Below are positions 13,005 to 51,262 of a stretch of 64,000 nucleotides of DNA, piece after piece. Each line of letters starts with the position of its first letter. Position 1 is the first letter of the stretch. A model generated the notes under the pieces. The model was not told the DNA's origin. It did not search any database and saw only the letters and a list, made by a program, of their open reading frames with translations. This DNA is from Escherichia coli (GTDB lineage Bacteria; Pseudomonadota; Gammaproteobacteria; Enterobacterales; Enterobacteriaceae): the NCBI RefSeq assembly GCF_050920415.1, contig NZ_CP169309.1; one strand, written 5' to 3'. Both the position numbers and the translations under genes were made by a program.

Positions 13005-14705
13005 TTATTCAACCTCTTCACAGACATCCTGAATTAATCGCCGCATAATATCTTTCCTTAACAAAAACTTTTGTATTTTACCTGATGCAGTACGTGGTAA
13101 TTTCTCTGTTACCACAATATGTTCAGGATATTTATATTTTGCTACCCGTTTACGGCTAAAAAAAGCCACTATGTCTTCCAGCGATATTGAATGATGCGGC
13201 GCTTTCAGCACGACATAAGCGCATGAACGTTCACCTAAACGTTCATCGGGCATCGCAACCACACAGGCATCATGAATTTTAGGATGCTGTAATAAAATAT
13301 CTTCCACTTCACGACTGCTAATATTTTCCCCGCCGCGGACAATAATATCTTTCTTGCGCCCGGTTATTTTTATATAGCCAGCTTCATCCATTCGGCAGAG
13401 ATCGCCGCTGTAATACCAGCCTTCTTCATCCAGCGCACGGGCGGTTAATTCCGGTTCATCAAAATAACCCATAAACACATTGGGACCACGCGAAGCCTCT
13501 TCACCTACACAACCAGGCGGTAAGGTCTTGCGTGCATCATCGACCACTTTAATCTCTACGCCTGCGGCAGCGTAACCATCGGTGTTCATAAAGCGCGACA
13601 AAGGATCGTCGAGATTTACCACCGCATGCGGCGAACTTTCTGTGGAACCATAAACACTTAATAATTTAATGCCGCGTTGTTGGCATTCACGCGCCACCTT
13701 TTTGGGGATCGTGGTGCCGCCGCAAAGAAAGAAGCGTAGTGCAGAAAGGTCTGCGGGCTGTTTCTCCAGTAAATTCAAAAGGTCATAGACAAACGGTGTT
13801 GCGCCGAGCATGCAGGTACACCGTTGCTGCTCAAGTAGCAAAAGACAGGCTTCCGGGGTAAAGATATCTAACAACACGCTGCGAGCGCCAATTAAAAATG
13901 GTGCCGTTACGCCATGCAGAAAGCCCGTTGCGTGACCGAGTGGTGCAGGCATCATAAAGACATCCTGCCAGGTCAGGTTCAGCCGCGCGCAATATGCCCG
14001 CTCACTGGCGAGAATATTGTTATGCGTTAGCATCACGCCCTTTGGCTGCCCCTCAGTTCCGGAGGTAAATAGCACTGCTGCTAATTCATCGCCGTGGGTC
14101 GTTATCGCCGTAGTCAGTGGGGTATTGTCGGCGAGAATCTGACTTAATGAGAGGGACGAGGTGGCGGGAGCCAGTTTGTCCACGCCGACAATTTGTTGTA
14201 GTTGTGGAAGCTGATTTTGCAGCGGCAGGATTAAATCTACCGGACGCGTTTGTTTAAACAACGTCGGTGCAAAGAACATTTTTGCCTGACACTTATTGAG
14301 CACCCACACCAGTTCTGCTTCCCGCCAGGAAGGTAACAGCGGCACGGAAACCGCACCGGTTTTCAGGCAGGCAAGATAGATAACGGTAAATTCACACCAG
14401 CCTGGCAGTTGAAATGCGATGCGATCCCCTGATTCAATACCCTTCGCCAGCATCCAGTTTGCCAGACAGCTCGCGGCATGATCGAGCTCGCTATAGGTGT
14501 ACGATGCACCATGATTATCGACCACGGCAATTTTATCTGGCATCGCACGAGCGGTCTGCTGCCAGTAATCGGCCAGCGAAGCATCGCCCCATAATCCTTG
14601 CTGACGATACGCCGCACGACGTTGTTCGTTAAACGTTAATGTCACTTTCATTTTGGACTCTCGAAACAGAACATCAGGCCCGAGATACGGGCCTGTGGGA
14701 TGCAT
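13005..14705 (-). CDS. fadK: Short-chain acyl-CoA synthetase (anaerobic)
   Basis: 566-aa ORF with AMP-binding motifs (TSGTEGQPKG); ATG at 14705; an alternative start at MKVTLTF 17 codons in cannot be excluded. Confidence 0.88.
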   Translation of the reverse strand: MHPTGPYLGPDVLFRESKMKVTLTFNEQRRAAYRQQGLWGDASLADYWQQTARAMPDKIAVVDNHGASYTYSELDHAASCLANWMLAKGIESGDRIAFQLPGWCEFTVIYLACLKTGAVSVPLLPSWREAELVWVLNKCQAKMFFAPTLFKQTRPVDLILPLQNQLPQLQQIVGVDKLAPATSSLSLSQILADNTPLTTAITTHGDELAAVLFTSGTEGQPKGVMLTHNNILASERAYCARLNLTWQDVFMMPAPLGHATGFLHGVTAPFLIGARSVLLDIFTPEACLLLLEQQRCTCMLGATPFVYDLLNLLEKQPADLSALRFFLCGGTTIPKKVARECQQRGIKLLSVYGSTESSPHAVVNLDDPLSRFMNTDGYAAAGVEIKVVDDARKTLPPGCVGEEASRGPNVFMGYFDEPELTARALDEEGWYYSGDLCRMDEAGYIKITGRKKDIIVRGGENISSREVEDILLQHPKIHDACVVAMPDERLGERSCAYVVLKAPHHSISLEDIVAFFSRKRVAKYKYPEHIVVTEKLPRTASGKIQKFLLRKDIMRRLIQDVCEEVE

Positions 14706-17300: not shown

Positions 17301-18065
17301 TCAGTTCAGGGCTTTCTTCAGATGTTCCGCCAGCTCGGCAATGGCCTCCGGCGAATCGTTATCGAGAATGATGTGCTTACGTTCTGTTTGCGGCGGTACG
17401 CGAATGCCGGTCAGTTCAGCAAGTGGCGTGCTCTGGCTCCAGCCAATATCACTTGCCTGCCACTGATTTACCGGTTTTTTACCCGCGCCGAGAATGGCTT
17501 TCATCGAAGGAATGCGTGGCATGTTAATATCGGAGGTGACGCAGAGCACGGCTGGAACAGAGAGCTCAATAACTTCAACATCATCTTCAAGCGTGCGTTC
17601 AATCACCAGTGTATTGCCCTGACGCTGAATAGCACTCACTGCATTAATCACCGGAAGTTGCAGAATTTCTCCGACCAGCAAGCCAACCTGCTGGGCATAA
17701 AGGTCGCCGGAACCTTCACCAAAGATCAGTAAATCGAAGCCGATCTTTTCAACTGCTGCCGCCAGCGCCTTTGCGGTATCGAGAGGCAGTGCATGTTCAA
17801 GTTGCGCATCCTGCACCAAATACAGGCTATGCGGCCCGCGGGATAGCACGTCTTTGCGCACTTTCGAGTTCTGCAACAATGAGCCGCCAATGGTCAGCGC
17901 GGCTATCTCATCGTCATCTGTTGCAATCTGGCTTGCAGCTTCAATGGCATTGAGATCGAACTGGCTGATTTTGGCGTCGGCATTGTCGAAATTCAGGGTA
18001 TATTCTGGAGTGACAACAATGTCCTGTTCTTCAGGCACCAGCTTAAAGCAGGTTATTATTTTCAT
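17301..18065 (-). CDS. ydiQ: Electron transfer flavoprotein beta subunit
   Basis: 254 aa from ATG at 18065 (MKIITCFKLVPEE) with RBS caggag upstream; the ORF-track 33-codon 5' extension is rejected. Confidence 0.88.
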   Translation of the reverse strand: MKIITCFKLVPEEQDIVVTPEYTLNFDNADAKISQFDLNAIEAASQIATDDDEIAALTIGGSLLQNSKVRKDVLSRGPHSLYLVQDAQLEHALPLDTAKALAAAVEKIGFDLLIFGEGSGDLYAQQVGLLVGEILQLPVINAVSAIQRQGNTLVIERTLEDDVEVIELSVPAVLCVTSDINMPRIPSMKAILGAGKKPVNQWQASDIGWSQSTPLAELTGIRVPPQTERKHIILDNDSPEAIAELAEHLKKALN

Positions 18066-18180
18066 GATTTCTCCTGTGAGTCGCATACGGAACCATCTCC
18101 GATGGAAGGTAAAAATGGCCTGAAAATAGTGTGCGATAGCGGTGCGGGGTTTTCGACGGAGCAAGCTGTTTTCCTTGCCA

Positions 18181-18264
18181 ACAATCTTGCAAAAAAAATG
18201 CGATCGCTAAAACAAAAGTGCAATTTGCGGCAATGTTGTTATTCCATGACCGTACAATCTTGCA
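18181..18264 (+). promoter_or_regulatory. Divergent ydiQ/ydiP promoter region with direct 11-mer repeat ACAATCTTGCA (copies at 18181-18191 and 18254-18264)
   Basis: Identical 11-mer twice, 73 bp apart, in a 216-bp intergenic region. Confidence 0.4.
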
Positions 18265-18380
18265 TTCAGTGTAAATAATCTTGTTTAGCTCTCGCTAAAC
18301 GCGGTTGTATAACCGCAATACACGCCGTATTTTATCCGGCATATATTGTTTTTGCTTGCTCATGGAATAGGGAGGTTGTC

Positions 18381-19292
18381 ATGTATCAACGCTGTTTTGA
18401 TAACGCCAGCGAAACGCTGTTTGTCGCCGGTAAAACGCCACGGCTTTCACGTTTTGCATTTAGCGATGATCCAAAATGGGAGTCCGGACATCACGTTCAT
18501 GACAATGAAACCGAGTTGATTTACGTCAAGAAAGGGGTAGCAAGGTTTACCATCGATTCTTCGTTATATGTCGCGCATGCCGATGACATTGTGGTGATAG
18601 AACGTGGCAGGTTGCATGCGGTGGCCTCTGACGTTAACGATCCAGCAACGACGTGTACCTGTGCGCTGTACGGCTTTCAGTTTCAGGGGACTGAGGAAAA
18701 TCAGCTACTGCAACCGCATTCTTGCCCGGTCATTGCCGCAGGGCAGGGAAAAGAAGTCATTAAAACCTTATTTAATGAGCTAAGTGTGATTTTGCCGCAA
18801 AGTAAAAATAGCCAAACATCTTCGTTATGGGACGCATTTGCCTATACGTTAGTAATTCTTTACTACGAAAACTTTAAAAATGCTTATCGTTCGGAGCAGG
18901 GATATATTAAAAAAGATGTTCTGATAAAAGATATTCTTTTCTATCTGAATAATAATTATCGCGAAAAAATCACTTTAGAGCAGTTATCGAAAAAATTTCG
19001 TGCCAGCGTCAGTTATATCTGCCATGAATTTACCAAAGAGTATCGTATTTCCCCTATTAACTATGTTATTCAACGGCGTATGACGGAAGCGAAATGGTCA
19101 CTCACTAATACTGAATTATCACAGGCAGAGATCTCCTGGCGTGTGGGTTATGAAAATGTCGATCACTTTGCCAAACTGTTTTTGCGCCATGTCGGCTGTT
19201 CGCCCAGCGATTACCGCAGGCAATTTAAAAACTGTTTTGCGGAACAAGAAATCTTATCTGAATTTCCTCAACCGGTAAGTCTTGCCGGATAA
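18381..19292 (+). CDS. ydiP: AraC/XylS family transcriptional regulator
   Basis: 303 aa, cupin-like N-terminus and C-terminal AraC-type HTH region. Confidence 0.9.
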   Translation: MYQRCFDNASETLFVAGKTPRLSRFAFSDDPKWESGHHVHDNETELIYVKKGVARFTIDSSLYVAHADDIVVIERGRLHAVASDVNDPATTCTCALYGFQFQGTEENQLLQPHSCPVIAAGQGKEVIKTLFNELSVILPQSKNSQTSSLWDAFAYTLVILYYENFKNAYRSEQGYIKKDVLIKDILFYLNNNYREKITLEQLSKKFRASVSYICHEFTKEYRISPINYVIQRRMTEAKWSLTNTELSQAEISWRVGYENVDHFAKLFLRHVGCSPSDYRRQFKNCFAEQEILSEFPQPVSLAG

Positions 19293-22095: not shown

Positions 22096-22239
22096 TGTTA
22101 ATTCCTGATTCAGGTGTAATTTTCCCTACGCCAGATGGAGAATTAGAGCGCAGAGACTCACGAAATATTTTTATTAAATACGGTTGAATATATTTTTTTA
22201 GTTCGGCGGGGGAGGGTATTCCCGCCGAAATATTATTGC

Positions 22240-23906: not shown

Positions 23907-25172
23907 TTAACCTCTATGCTTAATTGTGTTTAACCGGGTGCTAAATTTATGCTCGCCAAACCGCACATCATTTTCAGGAATAATGAAAACGCGGTAATAG
24001 CGGATAAAAACAATAATTGCGGTAATCAGGGCCAGCAGCGCGAAAGTAAAATCGAGAACAATGATATATTGCAGGCCGATGTTCGACAGATAACCGGTAA
24101 TCAGCGGAATAACAAAGTTAGCCAGTCCACCCATCATCATATATATACTGGTGACTTTGGCTTTGCTTTTGGGGAAAAACTCTGACATGACCGAAACGCC
24201 GAGCTGTAAAATGCCGCCAGCTGCTGAGAAACCGATAACAAAGGCTCCGGCATTACACACCAGTGGAGAAGGGTACAGGTAGATAATGGCAGCTGTTATT
24301 GTTGCCAGTGCAGAGTTAAATACATTAGCCCAGATGGGCCGGACCATTTTTTTCAGCAGTGCGGCAAAAATAAAGACACAGACCAGCGAACCCATACTGT
24401 AATAAGAGATGGTTTTTAATGCCTCAGCTTCTGACATACCAGCAAAAGCCATCGCATATTTGGGCATCCACACCACAATCACATAAAAGGTCGAGAATGC
24501 GGCTACACCGAACAGTACCGATGAAACACCTTCCAGCCAGACTAACGGTTTGCTGTTCATTTGCGGTAATTCATTAGCTACGCTGGCGTCCACCAACTGG
24601 CTGGGGAATTTGCTTTTCAACAGCATCAGCGTGATCAGTACAAACAGAATACCCGGAATAATCAGCCCATAGCCGTACCAGATATTATTGAGCAACATAT
24701 AGCTCACCAGCATTGGGTAGAACATTTGCCCGAATGACACCATCGCTTTAACCAGTATGACTGCCGAACCAGAGGCTTTCGGAAAGCATTCCATGAGCGC
24801 AGGGTAGCCACCCGTATCCAGCGCTGAGTTAGCGATACCTACGCACACTGCCAGACAGTAGGCGAGAGTTAAATTCGGGCAAGCGGGAATACCAAAGAAG
24901 AATAGCAGATACATTATTACTGCCATTAATATCACCGCCCGACGACCAAACTTATCGGAGATCACACCGAAGAATAAAATACTGATCAATCGCCCCAAAC
25001 CGATACCGGAAATTAAATAGGCAATGCCCGCGTTGTCAGTGGAAAACTTTTCTGCCAGAGATGACATATTTTGGGCAAGCGTAATAACACTAATGCCGTG
25101 CAGAAAATAGCTGAAGTAAATACAAAGAACAGCCAGGATAAATGGCGTGCTGAAAGCCTTATTTTGAGACAT
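23907..25172 (-). CDS. ydiN: MFS transporter
   Basis: 421 aa from ATG at 25172 (MSQNKAF); the ORF-track start at 25178 is GTG; multi-pass hydrophobic protein. Confidence 0.88.
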
Positions 25173-25398
25173 TTTCACAGCTCCTTGCTGAAAGATTATT
25201 TCGTTACCGTACGTATTGTTCTCCGACGGTTTACATAATTACTATACTGAAGATGATTTTCCCTGGGTACATGGCATAAAGTTTATGTTTCCAGGAATAT
25301 TGCATGTCATAGTTTGTTTTTGATCGCGATTTTCCTTAGTTAGCGCAGAAAGAGTTATTTATCCGTAAGATCTTGCATGACCTGAAAAGAATATTGCA

Positions 25399-51104: not shown

Positions 51105-51181
51105 TGGTGCGTCCGAGTGGACTCGAACCACCGACCCCCACCATGTCAAGGTGGTGCTCTAACCAACTGAGCTACGGACGC
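51105..51181 (-). tRNA. valW: tRNA-Val (anticodon GAC), downstream copy
   Basis: Reverse complement GCGTCCGTAGCTCAGTTGGTTAGAGCACCACCTTGACATGGTGGGGGTCGGTGGTTCGAGTCCACTCGGACGCACCA folds as tRNA with anticodon GAC and encoded CCA; valV/valW names assigned by position only. Confidence 0.95.
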
Positions 51182-51185
51182 AGGA

Positions 51186-51262
51186 TGGTGCGTTCAATTG
51201 GACTCGAACCAACGACCCCCACCATGTCAAGGTGGTGCTCTAACCAACTGAGCTATGAACGC
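51186..51262 (-). tRNA. valV: tRNA-Val (anticodon GAC), upstream copy
   Basis: Reverse complement GCGTTCATAGCTCAGTTGGTTAGAGCACCACCTTGACATGGTGGGGGTCGTTGGTTCGAGTCCAATTGAACGCACCA; 4-nt spacer to the second copy. Confidence 0.95.

Follow-up and report, generated by a model that had tools for sequence, protein, structure and literature searches.

Conserved AT-N-TTGCA boxes at three ydi promoters of Enterobacterales: an apparently undescribed set of putative operators for the AraC-type regulator YdiP

In the stretch of DNA analyzed here (64,000 nucleotides from Escherichia coli, referred to as the window), the ETF beta subunit gene ydiQ (17301-18065, - strand), which heads ydiQRST-fadK, and the AraC-family regulator gene ydiP (18381-19292, + strand) are divided by an annotated spacer of 315 bp (18066-18380), rather than the 216 bp given in the initial annotation of this region. 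The 11-mer ACAATCTTGCA is present twice on the + strand of this spacer, at 18181-18191 (copy 1, box Q-A) and 18254-18264 (copy 2, box P-A). The exact direct repeat with a start-to-start distance of 73 bp that had been noted here was thus borne out by exact matching, with copy 1 beginning 3 bases later than the originally assigned position 18178. Beyond this pair, two further boxes were found, a degenerate one (aATAATCTTGtt, with its core at 18278-18283) and a weak one (AAGCTGTTTT). No regulatory feature is annotated within the ydiQ-ydiP spacer in the K-12 RefSeq genome, and we found no description of these sites in the literature. A 451-bp test stretch of the window has a match in 5366 of 5426 complete E. 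coli genomes.

The repeat had been considered unlikely to occur by chance. Of 5000 dinucleotide-preserving shuffles of the ydiQ-ydiP spacer, 1.3% had a stretch of 11 nt or more that recurred exactly and in the same orientation (P = 0.013 per spacer). Taken alone, the repeat stands out only slightly against the window as a whole, as about ten similar 11-nt repeat pairs are located elsewhere in the 64 kb. A sliding scan found 14 pairs within 315 bp of each other (the ACAATCTTGCA pair is possibly counted among them), and a second count gave 17 maximal repeats as compared to 3.6 ± 1.6 in block shuffles, a count that is inflated by a tRNA duplication. Exact direct repeats of up to 29 nt, 81 bp apart, are located at 51118-51260 and contribute to this inflation; judging by map position relative to K-12, we presume that they represent the adjacent duplicated tRNA genes valV and valW. 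The bare repeat is thus weak evidence, and because the chance statistics were insignificant across the window, conservation was used as the test.

For this purpose, 40 loci with YdiP relatives (one genome per species) were assembled, and 38 ydiQ-ydiP spacers were examined, representing Escherichia, two Citrobacter groups, Kosakonia, Serratia, Symbiopectobacterium, Brenneria, Dickeya, Prodigiosinella, Yersinia and two odd contigs. In every sampled locus that spans the region, ydiQ is divergent from ydiP. The length of the orthologous spacers ranges from 314 to 911 bp and their flanking sequences can not be aligned between distant genera, yet the 8-nt core ATCTTGCA is found exactly twice in 37 of the 38. 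All 8-mers of the E. coli spacer that are present in each of the 32 non-Escherichia spacers lie inside the 11-mer repeat. Among the 15 spacers that could be aligned end to end (Escherichia, the Citrobacter amalonaticus group and Kosakonia), 71% of the columns in 18150-18199 and 59% of those in 18250-18288 are invariant, as compared to 20% for the 50 bp between these two segments. A similar pattern was found within E. coli, where 5183 of 5352 genomes (97%) match the window exactly over the copy 1 segment and 4287 of 5355 (80%) over the copy 2 segment, as compared to 179 of 5288 (3%) over the intervening positions 18200-18249, for which the window carries a rare allele. The conservation check that had been called for therefore came out positive: both repeats are kept across the Enterobacterales and the sequence between them is not. 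Nowhere between ydiQ and ydiP is the sequence better conserved than in the ACAATCTTGCA repeat, which is more than a chance occurrence, since both copies are kept while their flanks diverge and the spacer changes in length.

Only Escherichia, Kosakonia and the C. amalonaticus group have the two copies 73 bp apart; in Salmonella they are separated by 241 bp and in the Citrobacter freundii group by about 251 bp, and values of 327-337 bp were obtained for Serratia, Yersinia, Dickeya and Brenneria. As the separation varies in this manner, and as copy 1 tracks the ydiQ promoter and copy 2 tracks ydiP, the two 11-mers are not partners. The earlier suggestion that they represent operator half-sites was sound in that they are conserved boxes beside an AraC-family gene, but it is not supported as stated, since they do not make up a single operator between them.

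On the ydiQ side, the core of box Q-A (18184-18191, + strand) was found at its position in 38 of 38 spacers, and AACAATCTTGCAAAAAAAA carries the best-conserved 8-mers of the spacer. The core is followed by an A8 tract (18191-18198), and an A8 tract is present in all genera. The distance from Q-A to the ydiQ ATG is 119 bp in E. coli and about 100-140 bp in most genera. Q-A forms part of a composite element proximal to the ydiQ promoter (18150-18199), which comprises TTTTCGACGG, a weak box B', box Q-A and the A-tract in the order TTTTCGACGG-GCAAnCTGTTTTC-TTnCCAACAATCTTGCA-A8. Box B' (18163-18172) is the weak copy AAGCTGTTTT introduced above and is located about 21 bp upstream of copy 1, toward ydiQ. 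Further toward the gene, the block AAATAGTGTGCG (18124-18135) is invariant in the 15 aligned spacers. Its counterpart in the Yersinia and Dickeya sequences is TATATC, and the block is in register with a clear -10 element of ydiN, described below. The ydiQ -10 is thus likely to lie inside this block, and the predicted -10 region (18123-18136, - strand) offers either TATTTT (18128 to 18123) or CACACT (18133 to 18128).

On the ydiP side, box P-A (18254-18264, + strand; core at 18257-18264) is an exact match to copy 1, and in almost every locus its core precedes the ydiP ATG by about 113-126 bp. It is followed by box P-B (AAATAATCTTGTTT, 18272-18286, + strand; core ATCTTG at 18278-18283), for which the consensus across loci is AAAyAATyTTGTTy. 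The distance between the cores of P-A and P-B is 21 bp and is invariant in all eight genera for which longer loci were compared (see below). The sequence GTTGTATAAC is conserved 3' of P-B and has as its counterpart TGnTATAnn, an extended -10, in Yersinia, Serratia and Dickeya. TATAAC at 18308-18313 (+ strand), within the conserved block GTTGTATAACC, is accordingly a candidate for the ydiP -10; given this prediction, P-B would be centered near -40 and P-A near -61. A consensus scan found no strong sigma-70 promoter within the ydiQ-ydiP spacer, no conserved -35 was seen at the ydiQ or ydiP promoter in the aligned spacers, and the supplements of PMC3415461 contain no start-site entry for ydiP or ydiQ.

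Three other sequence features were observed around the 5' end of ydiP. An inverted repeat (GTTTAGC-TCTC-GCTAAAC, 18283-18300) between P-B and the predicted -10 scored as terminator-like on the - strand and is kept mainly within Escherichia. An exact 10-mer direct repeat, AACGCTGTTT, is found at 18388-18397 and 18413-18422 (25 bp apart), in a stretch that has been quoted as an FlhDC genomic-SELEX sequence (PMC9962212). A near-consensus FNR site, TTGATttacGTCAA, is located at 18515-18528, inside codons 45-50 of ydiP, and matches the site that Grainger et al. proposed under the ydiP/ydiQ FNR ChIP-chip peak (PMC1802558); as a DNA site it is specific to E. coli, since in each of the other species compared, E. 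albertii and E. whittamii among them, synonymous changes disrupt its TTGAT half.

A weight matrix derived from the P-A/P-B pairs was scanned over the 64-kb window and gave one further match, at 25364 in the ydiM-ydiN spacer, upstream of ydiN-ydiB-aroD. The gene that heads this group, ydiN (23907-25172, - strand), encodes an MFS transporter. Box N1 (ATATTGCA; 25297-25304, + strand), located 126 bp upstream of the ydiN ATG, is the counterpart of Q-A, and is followed by boxes N2 and N3 (25370-25398, + strand), i.e. ATCTTGCA at 25370-25377 and ATATTGCA at 25391-25398, the latter adjoining the ydiM stop codon. The arrangement of N1, 73 bp, N2, 21 bp and N3 has the same spacings as Q-A, P-A and P-B, 7.1 kb away, and an ungapped comparison gave 96 matches in 231 positions at an offset of 7113 as compared to at most 78 at other offsets. 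For both Q-A and N1, the promoter-proximal partner is a weak box copy only. TAnAnT hexamers (TATAGT, TATATT or TACATT) are found in register in six genera, and TATAGT at 25241-25246 (- strand) may thus represent the ydiN -10, which would place the center of N1 near -65.

When read in the sense of the gene, the proximal elements of ydiQ and ydiN (about 40 bp, six genera) share the pattern TGCAAnAwnnyTGGnAAnnAAAAC...ATGT, followed by the -10. Relative to the predicted -10s, the strong box is centered at about -65 to -70 at ydiQ and ydiN and the conserved block reaches about -35, with P-B near -40 at ydiP; the -35 hexamers themselves are not conserved at ydiQ, ydiN or ydiP. All boxes share one orientation, and ydiQ and ydiN are transcribed in the direction opposite to ydiP.

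The comparison was extended to 20-kb loci from a Citrobacter youngae-like Citrobacter, C. amalonaticus, Kosakonia, Yersinia, Serratia, Dickeya and Salmonella. The gene order fadK-ydiTSRQ / ydiP / ydiO-ydiF-aroD-ydiB-ydiN is kept in eight genera, and in all eight a proximal box and a distal pair (21-22 bp) are located upstream of ydiN. Same-strand AT.TTG pairs at 20-22 bp occurred 16 times in 210 kb from the eight genera, i.e. two per genome, against an expectation of about 0.5 per 64 kb, and all 16 are located upstream of ydiP or ydiN. These comparisons show that the boxes exist, how they are arranged, that they are conserved and that they are confined to these promoters. The aroD-ydiF spacer contained no conserved box in the eight genera, and ydiFO is therefore not established as a direct target.

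Some additional features of these loci were recorded. The aroD-ydiF spacer (22096-22239 in the window; 13720-13885, 13762-13889 and 13728-13880 in loci L043, L053 and L056, respectively) has a hairpin after aroD. Upstream of ydiF, the Kosakonia, C. amalonaticus and Salmonella loci carry a palindrome (TGAATATT-N-AATATTCA type) without the AT-N-TTGCA box, which may be the site of a different regulator. A LysR-family gene is located between ydiN and ydiM, divergent from ydiN, in the Yersinia, Serratia and Dickeya loci (L044, 17632-18534; L051, 17510-18409; L052, 18033-18935), and a shikimate-kinase-like gene (L051, 20157-20672) adjoins ydiL in the Serratia locus.

The distance between proximal and distal boxes differs widely among genera. 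The distances from Q-A to P-A are 73, 241, 251, 333, 327 and 336 bp, and those from N1 to N2 are 73/74, 181, 84, 365, 283 and 379 bp. For these twelve distances, a small sample whose members are partly related by descent, the phases at 10.5 bp per turn cluster near 0 (R = 0.68; Rayleigh test, P about 0.004). When periods between 9 and 13 bp were compared, the maximum was at 10.48, and only 1% of the periods scored as high. The distal pairs appear to lie at integral helical turns from the proximal boxes, an indirect sign that the bound proteins may be in contact.

Members of the AraC family bind tandem half-sites that are spaced 21 bp apart and abut the -35 (e.g., AraC at I1-I2, XylS at Pm). 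Further hallmarks of AraC and its relatives are a distal site in helical phase and a second set of sites where the divergent gene of the regulator itself is transcribed. The arrangement described here has two features of an AraC/XylS-type operator, i.e. a regulator with two HTH motifs and a ligand domain encoded at the locus and direct repeats about 21 bp apart, with P-A/P-B and N2/N3 spaced by 21 bp (22 bp in one case) in eight genera. YdiP contains an AraC_binding/cupin domain (residues 28-145; AraC_binding, E = 2e-10; Cupin_2, E = 4.5e-11) and an HTH_18 domain (residues 202-281; E = 9.6e-21). It has no equivalog-level match in NCBIfam, and its closest solved relatives match in the DNA-binding domain only. 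In every genome examined, ydiP is the sole regulator gene between the boxed promoters.

We hypothesize that the two 11-mers belong to a set of at least seven binding boxes with the core AT-N-TTGCA or AT-N-TTGTTT, and that these boxes are operators for a cluster-specific transcription factor, most likely a YdiP dimer, that controls ydiQRST-fadK, ydiP and ydiN-ydiB-aroD. We consider this reading probable; the binding by YdiP itself we infer from gene position and operator geometry. The box system appears to be an undescribed operator set at three ydi promoters, which would most likely allow YdiP to control a cluster of 11 genes. Three units may be distinguished. The first would cover about 40-50 bp upstream of the ydiQ promoter, with Q-A near -65 to -70 and its weak partner toward -35. 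The second would consist of the tandem boxes P-A and P-B, exactly 21 bp apart and ending at the poorly conserved -35 of ydiP, and the third would combine a proximal unit and a distal pair upstream of ydiN. Proteins bound at proximal and distal boxes could be in contact through looping or cooperativity, as in the ara system. As all three promoters have a recognizable -10 and no conserved -35, dependence on an activator would be expected. The promoter positions, the direction of regulation and looping are, like the identity of the binding protein, our interpretation of these patterns. Two points speak against this reading. The partners of Q-A and N1 nearest the promoter are only weak copies, and the boxes have a single orientation, so that the protein would be turned toward RNA polymerase in one way at ydiP and in another at ydiQ and ydiN. 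Precedents for such differing orientation exist in the family at araFGH and in the class I versus class II promoters of MarA and SoxS.

Published binding data for YdiP do not include the ydi promoters. ChIP-exo in glucose M9 medium gave five low-signal sites (sdhC, uxaB, secG, cspA and yihQ), none in the ydi cluster, and the K-12 sequences at these five sites contained no meaningful box within about 130 bp at up to one mismatch. ChIP-seq at 15°C gave peaks of 0.8-22 kb at tRNA and rRNA genes, lpp, ompC, dnaK and ibpA, none of them at the ydi promoters; we read this pattern as non-specific enrichment at highly expressed loci. The published peaks (cspA, secG, gltA/sdhC, tRNA/rRNA, lpp, dnaK, ibpA) share no box (K-12 sites in L046-L050; PMC9283627, Supplementary Data 12). 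In our judgement the two data sets are weak negatives, because the C-terminal tags adjoin the C-terminal DNA-binding domain and no candidate inducer was present. The assignment of a cold-shock regulon to YdiP is open to doubt, given the wide peaks without boxes. Distant homologues of YdiP (47-51% identity; loci L054 and L055) are found in another gene context, and their loci contained no such boxes and no other 21-bp repeats, an outcome that we judged uninformative. In L054 (8687-10891), the homologue (51% identity) is located downstream of an MFS gene and near fumarate-reductase-like flavoproteins and a two-component system, with homologues of fadK, ydiT, ydiS and ydiR 6-10 kb away.

With regard to a possible inducer, a passage of PMC4585142 that cites Johansson and Liden (2006) reports that ydiN, ydiB and aroD are upregulated together in a shikimate producer, and ydiQ, ydiR and ydiT were among the genes with significantly different expression between growth phases of another producer (PMC4015609). 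These data are circumstantial, but they fit co-regulation and hint at a hydroaromatic inducer. We tentatively propose, as a possibility that is more speculative than the operator assignment, that YdiP is a hydroaromatic-responsive switch that uses looping operators to co-regulate ydiN-ydiB-aroD with ydiQRST-fadK and possibly, by read-through, ydiFO. If so, the ligand would be shikimate, quinate or dehydroshikimate, the cluster would represent an unrecognized 11-gene pathway across the Enterobacterales, and the published role of YdiP in cold shock would have its basis in ChIP signal that is non-specific.

Like most genes of the ydi cluster, ydiP is among those E. coli genes that still lack an experimentally determined function, and the published YdiP targets (cold-shock genes, sdhC and others) lack a common motif. 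The present analysis supplies a testable operator (AT-N-TTGCA, in pairs at 21 bp) and three target promoters. The predicted regulon would join a quinate/shikimate dehydrogenase, a dehydroquinase and an MFS transporter to the ETF-dependent acyl-CoA system, which is implicated in anaerobic use of fatty acids and butyrate in E. coli and Salmonella.

The boxes might also be real operators of another protein, either the small HTH protein YdiL, whose gene is near ydiM, or a regulator from another part of the genome, in which case YdiP would act on other targets such as the published cold-shock genes. The lack of a ChIP peak for YdiP at the ydi promoters, the presence of a YdiL-family gene in 7 of the 8 20-kb loci and the absence of boxes at the locus of a distant YdiP homologue are all consistent with this alternative, which we nevertheless regard as rather unlikely. 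In all genomes examined, ydiP is the one regulator gene flanked by the boxed promoters, and the published YdiP peaks fall at hyper-expressed loci and have no common box. Moreover, direct repeats at 21 bp fit AraC-type dimers and are unlike the inverted repeats that are expected for HTH dimers of the XRE/Aca2 type. No CRP, FNR, TyrR, CytR or XylS-type consensus explains the boxes. For example, the best matches to the FNR, CRP and TyrR consensus sequences had 3 mismatches and were located away from the conserved blocks; octamers of the CytR type (GTTGCATT) were found only in one-mismatch form, at two boxes, and CRP sites all had at least 3 mismatches. A CytR operator was rejected, as there are no tandem CRP sites and the 3' TT of the box is not conserved across genera. 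A likeness by eye of N3 (AAGAATATTGC) to an RcsB box was also rejected, as it is limited to E. coli and its flanking letters are not conserved.

That the boxes are instead elements of the core promoter or of DNA structure (-35-like TTGCAA, UP-like A-tracts, bends) seems quite improbable. TTGCAA is similar to TTGACA, Q-A is followed by an A8 tract in every genus, and the consensus scan of the spacer had found no strong sigma-70 promoter, but the boxes are not located 17 ± 1 bp from the -10 candidates; the distance is about 50 bp for Q-A and N1 and about 25-45 bp for P-B and P-A, and N2 and N3 face the end of ydiM without a downstream -10. In addition, the conserved AT-N-TT letters fall outside the -35 hexamer, and pairing at a fixed 21 bp, like the apparent helical phasing, is what bound proteins would show. 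A sigma-54 promoter of the -24/-12 type was not found either, as neither spacer contained a GG...GC match of at least 8/11 to the pattern TGGCAC-N5-TTGCA.

A role of the repeats as RNA (leader, small RNA or riboswitch-like element) or within a small ORF is less plausible still. An ORF of 58 codons (18102-18278, + strand) covers both copies and a hairpin-like inverted repeat is present at 18283-18300, but an Rfam search of 17950-18500 gave no match at E ≤ 1, the boxes are located upstream of the inferred -10 elements, and conservation is confined to short blocks with variable, indel-rich gaps (including insertions of 14 nt and larger), which led us to reject an ORF or folded RNA across the copies. 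Finally, a chance or functionless remnant of a local duplication, for which one could cite that P = 0.013 per spacer is unremarkable over a 64-kb window with about ten such pairs, is refuted almost beyond doubt by the conservation, as both copies are invariant across genera with flanks beyond alignment and a threefold change in spacer length, the orthologous spacers are too diverged to be recent horizontal copies of one another, and the boxes and their spacings recur upstream of ydiN in eight genera.

The interpretation of the boxes as YdiP operators can be compared to several known systems, among them AraC at araC-araBAD. There, sites I1-I2, O1 and O2 form a "light switch" with a DNA loop. 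At both loci, the gene for a cupin-type regulator with two HTH motifs diverges from a catabolic operon, tandem direct half-sites are spaced by 21 bp, and the promoter of the regulator has a second pair. The ara half-sites end at a weak -35 and a distal ara site is placed at integral helical turns, features for which the ydi boxes may have counterparts. On the other hand, the AT-N-TTGCA box bears no relation to the half-site of ara, the ydi boxes have no evident CRP site, and the distance between distal and proximal ydi boxes ranges from 73 to 379 bp between genera. The ydi boxes also all point one way, and hence are inverted relative to transcription at ydiQ and ydiN as compared to ydiP.

At melR-melAB, MelR binds sites 1', 1, 2, 2' and R, which serve activation of the catabolic promoter as well as autoregulation, the upstream sites being needed for the latter. 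The likeness to the ydi locus consists in several AraC-family sites that are spread across a divergent spacer of 200-300 bp. In contrast to the ydi boxes, of which an 8-bp core only is kept, the MelR sites are 18 bp long, have mixed orientations and act jointly with CRP; furthermore, the ydi array is duplicated at a second, non-divergent promoter (ydiN). The XylS/BenR operators (TGCA-N6-GGNTA twice, 21 bp apart) share with the ydi boxes a TGCA repeated at 21 bp, which abuts the -35 and may do so at ydi as well, and we take the proximal ydi boxes, which read TGCAAGAT... in the sense of the gene, to resemble the distal XylS half-site TGCAAGAAGCGGATA. However, GGNTA is absent at ydi, where the conserved flank AT-N-T is located on the other side of TGCA.

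A parallel in gene content is caiTABCDE-fixABCX. The ydiQRST genes are paralogues of fixABCX, and ydiO and ydiF parallel caiA and caiB. Both systems combine an ETF-linked acyl-CoA reductive pathway, a divergent spacer and a pathway-specific activator (putative at ydi), which for caiTABCDE-fixABCX is CaiF. CaiF is not a member of the AraC family and has inverted half-sites of 11 bp, whereas the ydi repeats are direct, and at ydi the gene for the regulator is itself one of the two divergent partners.
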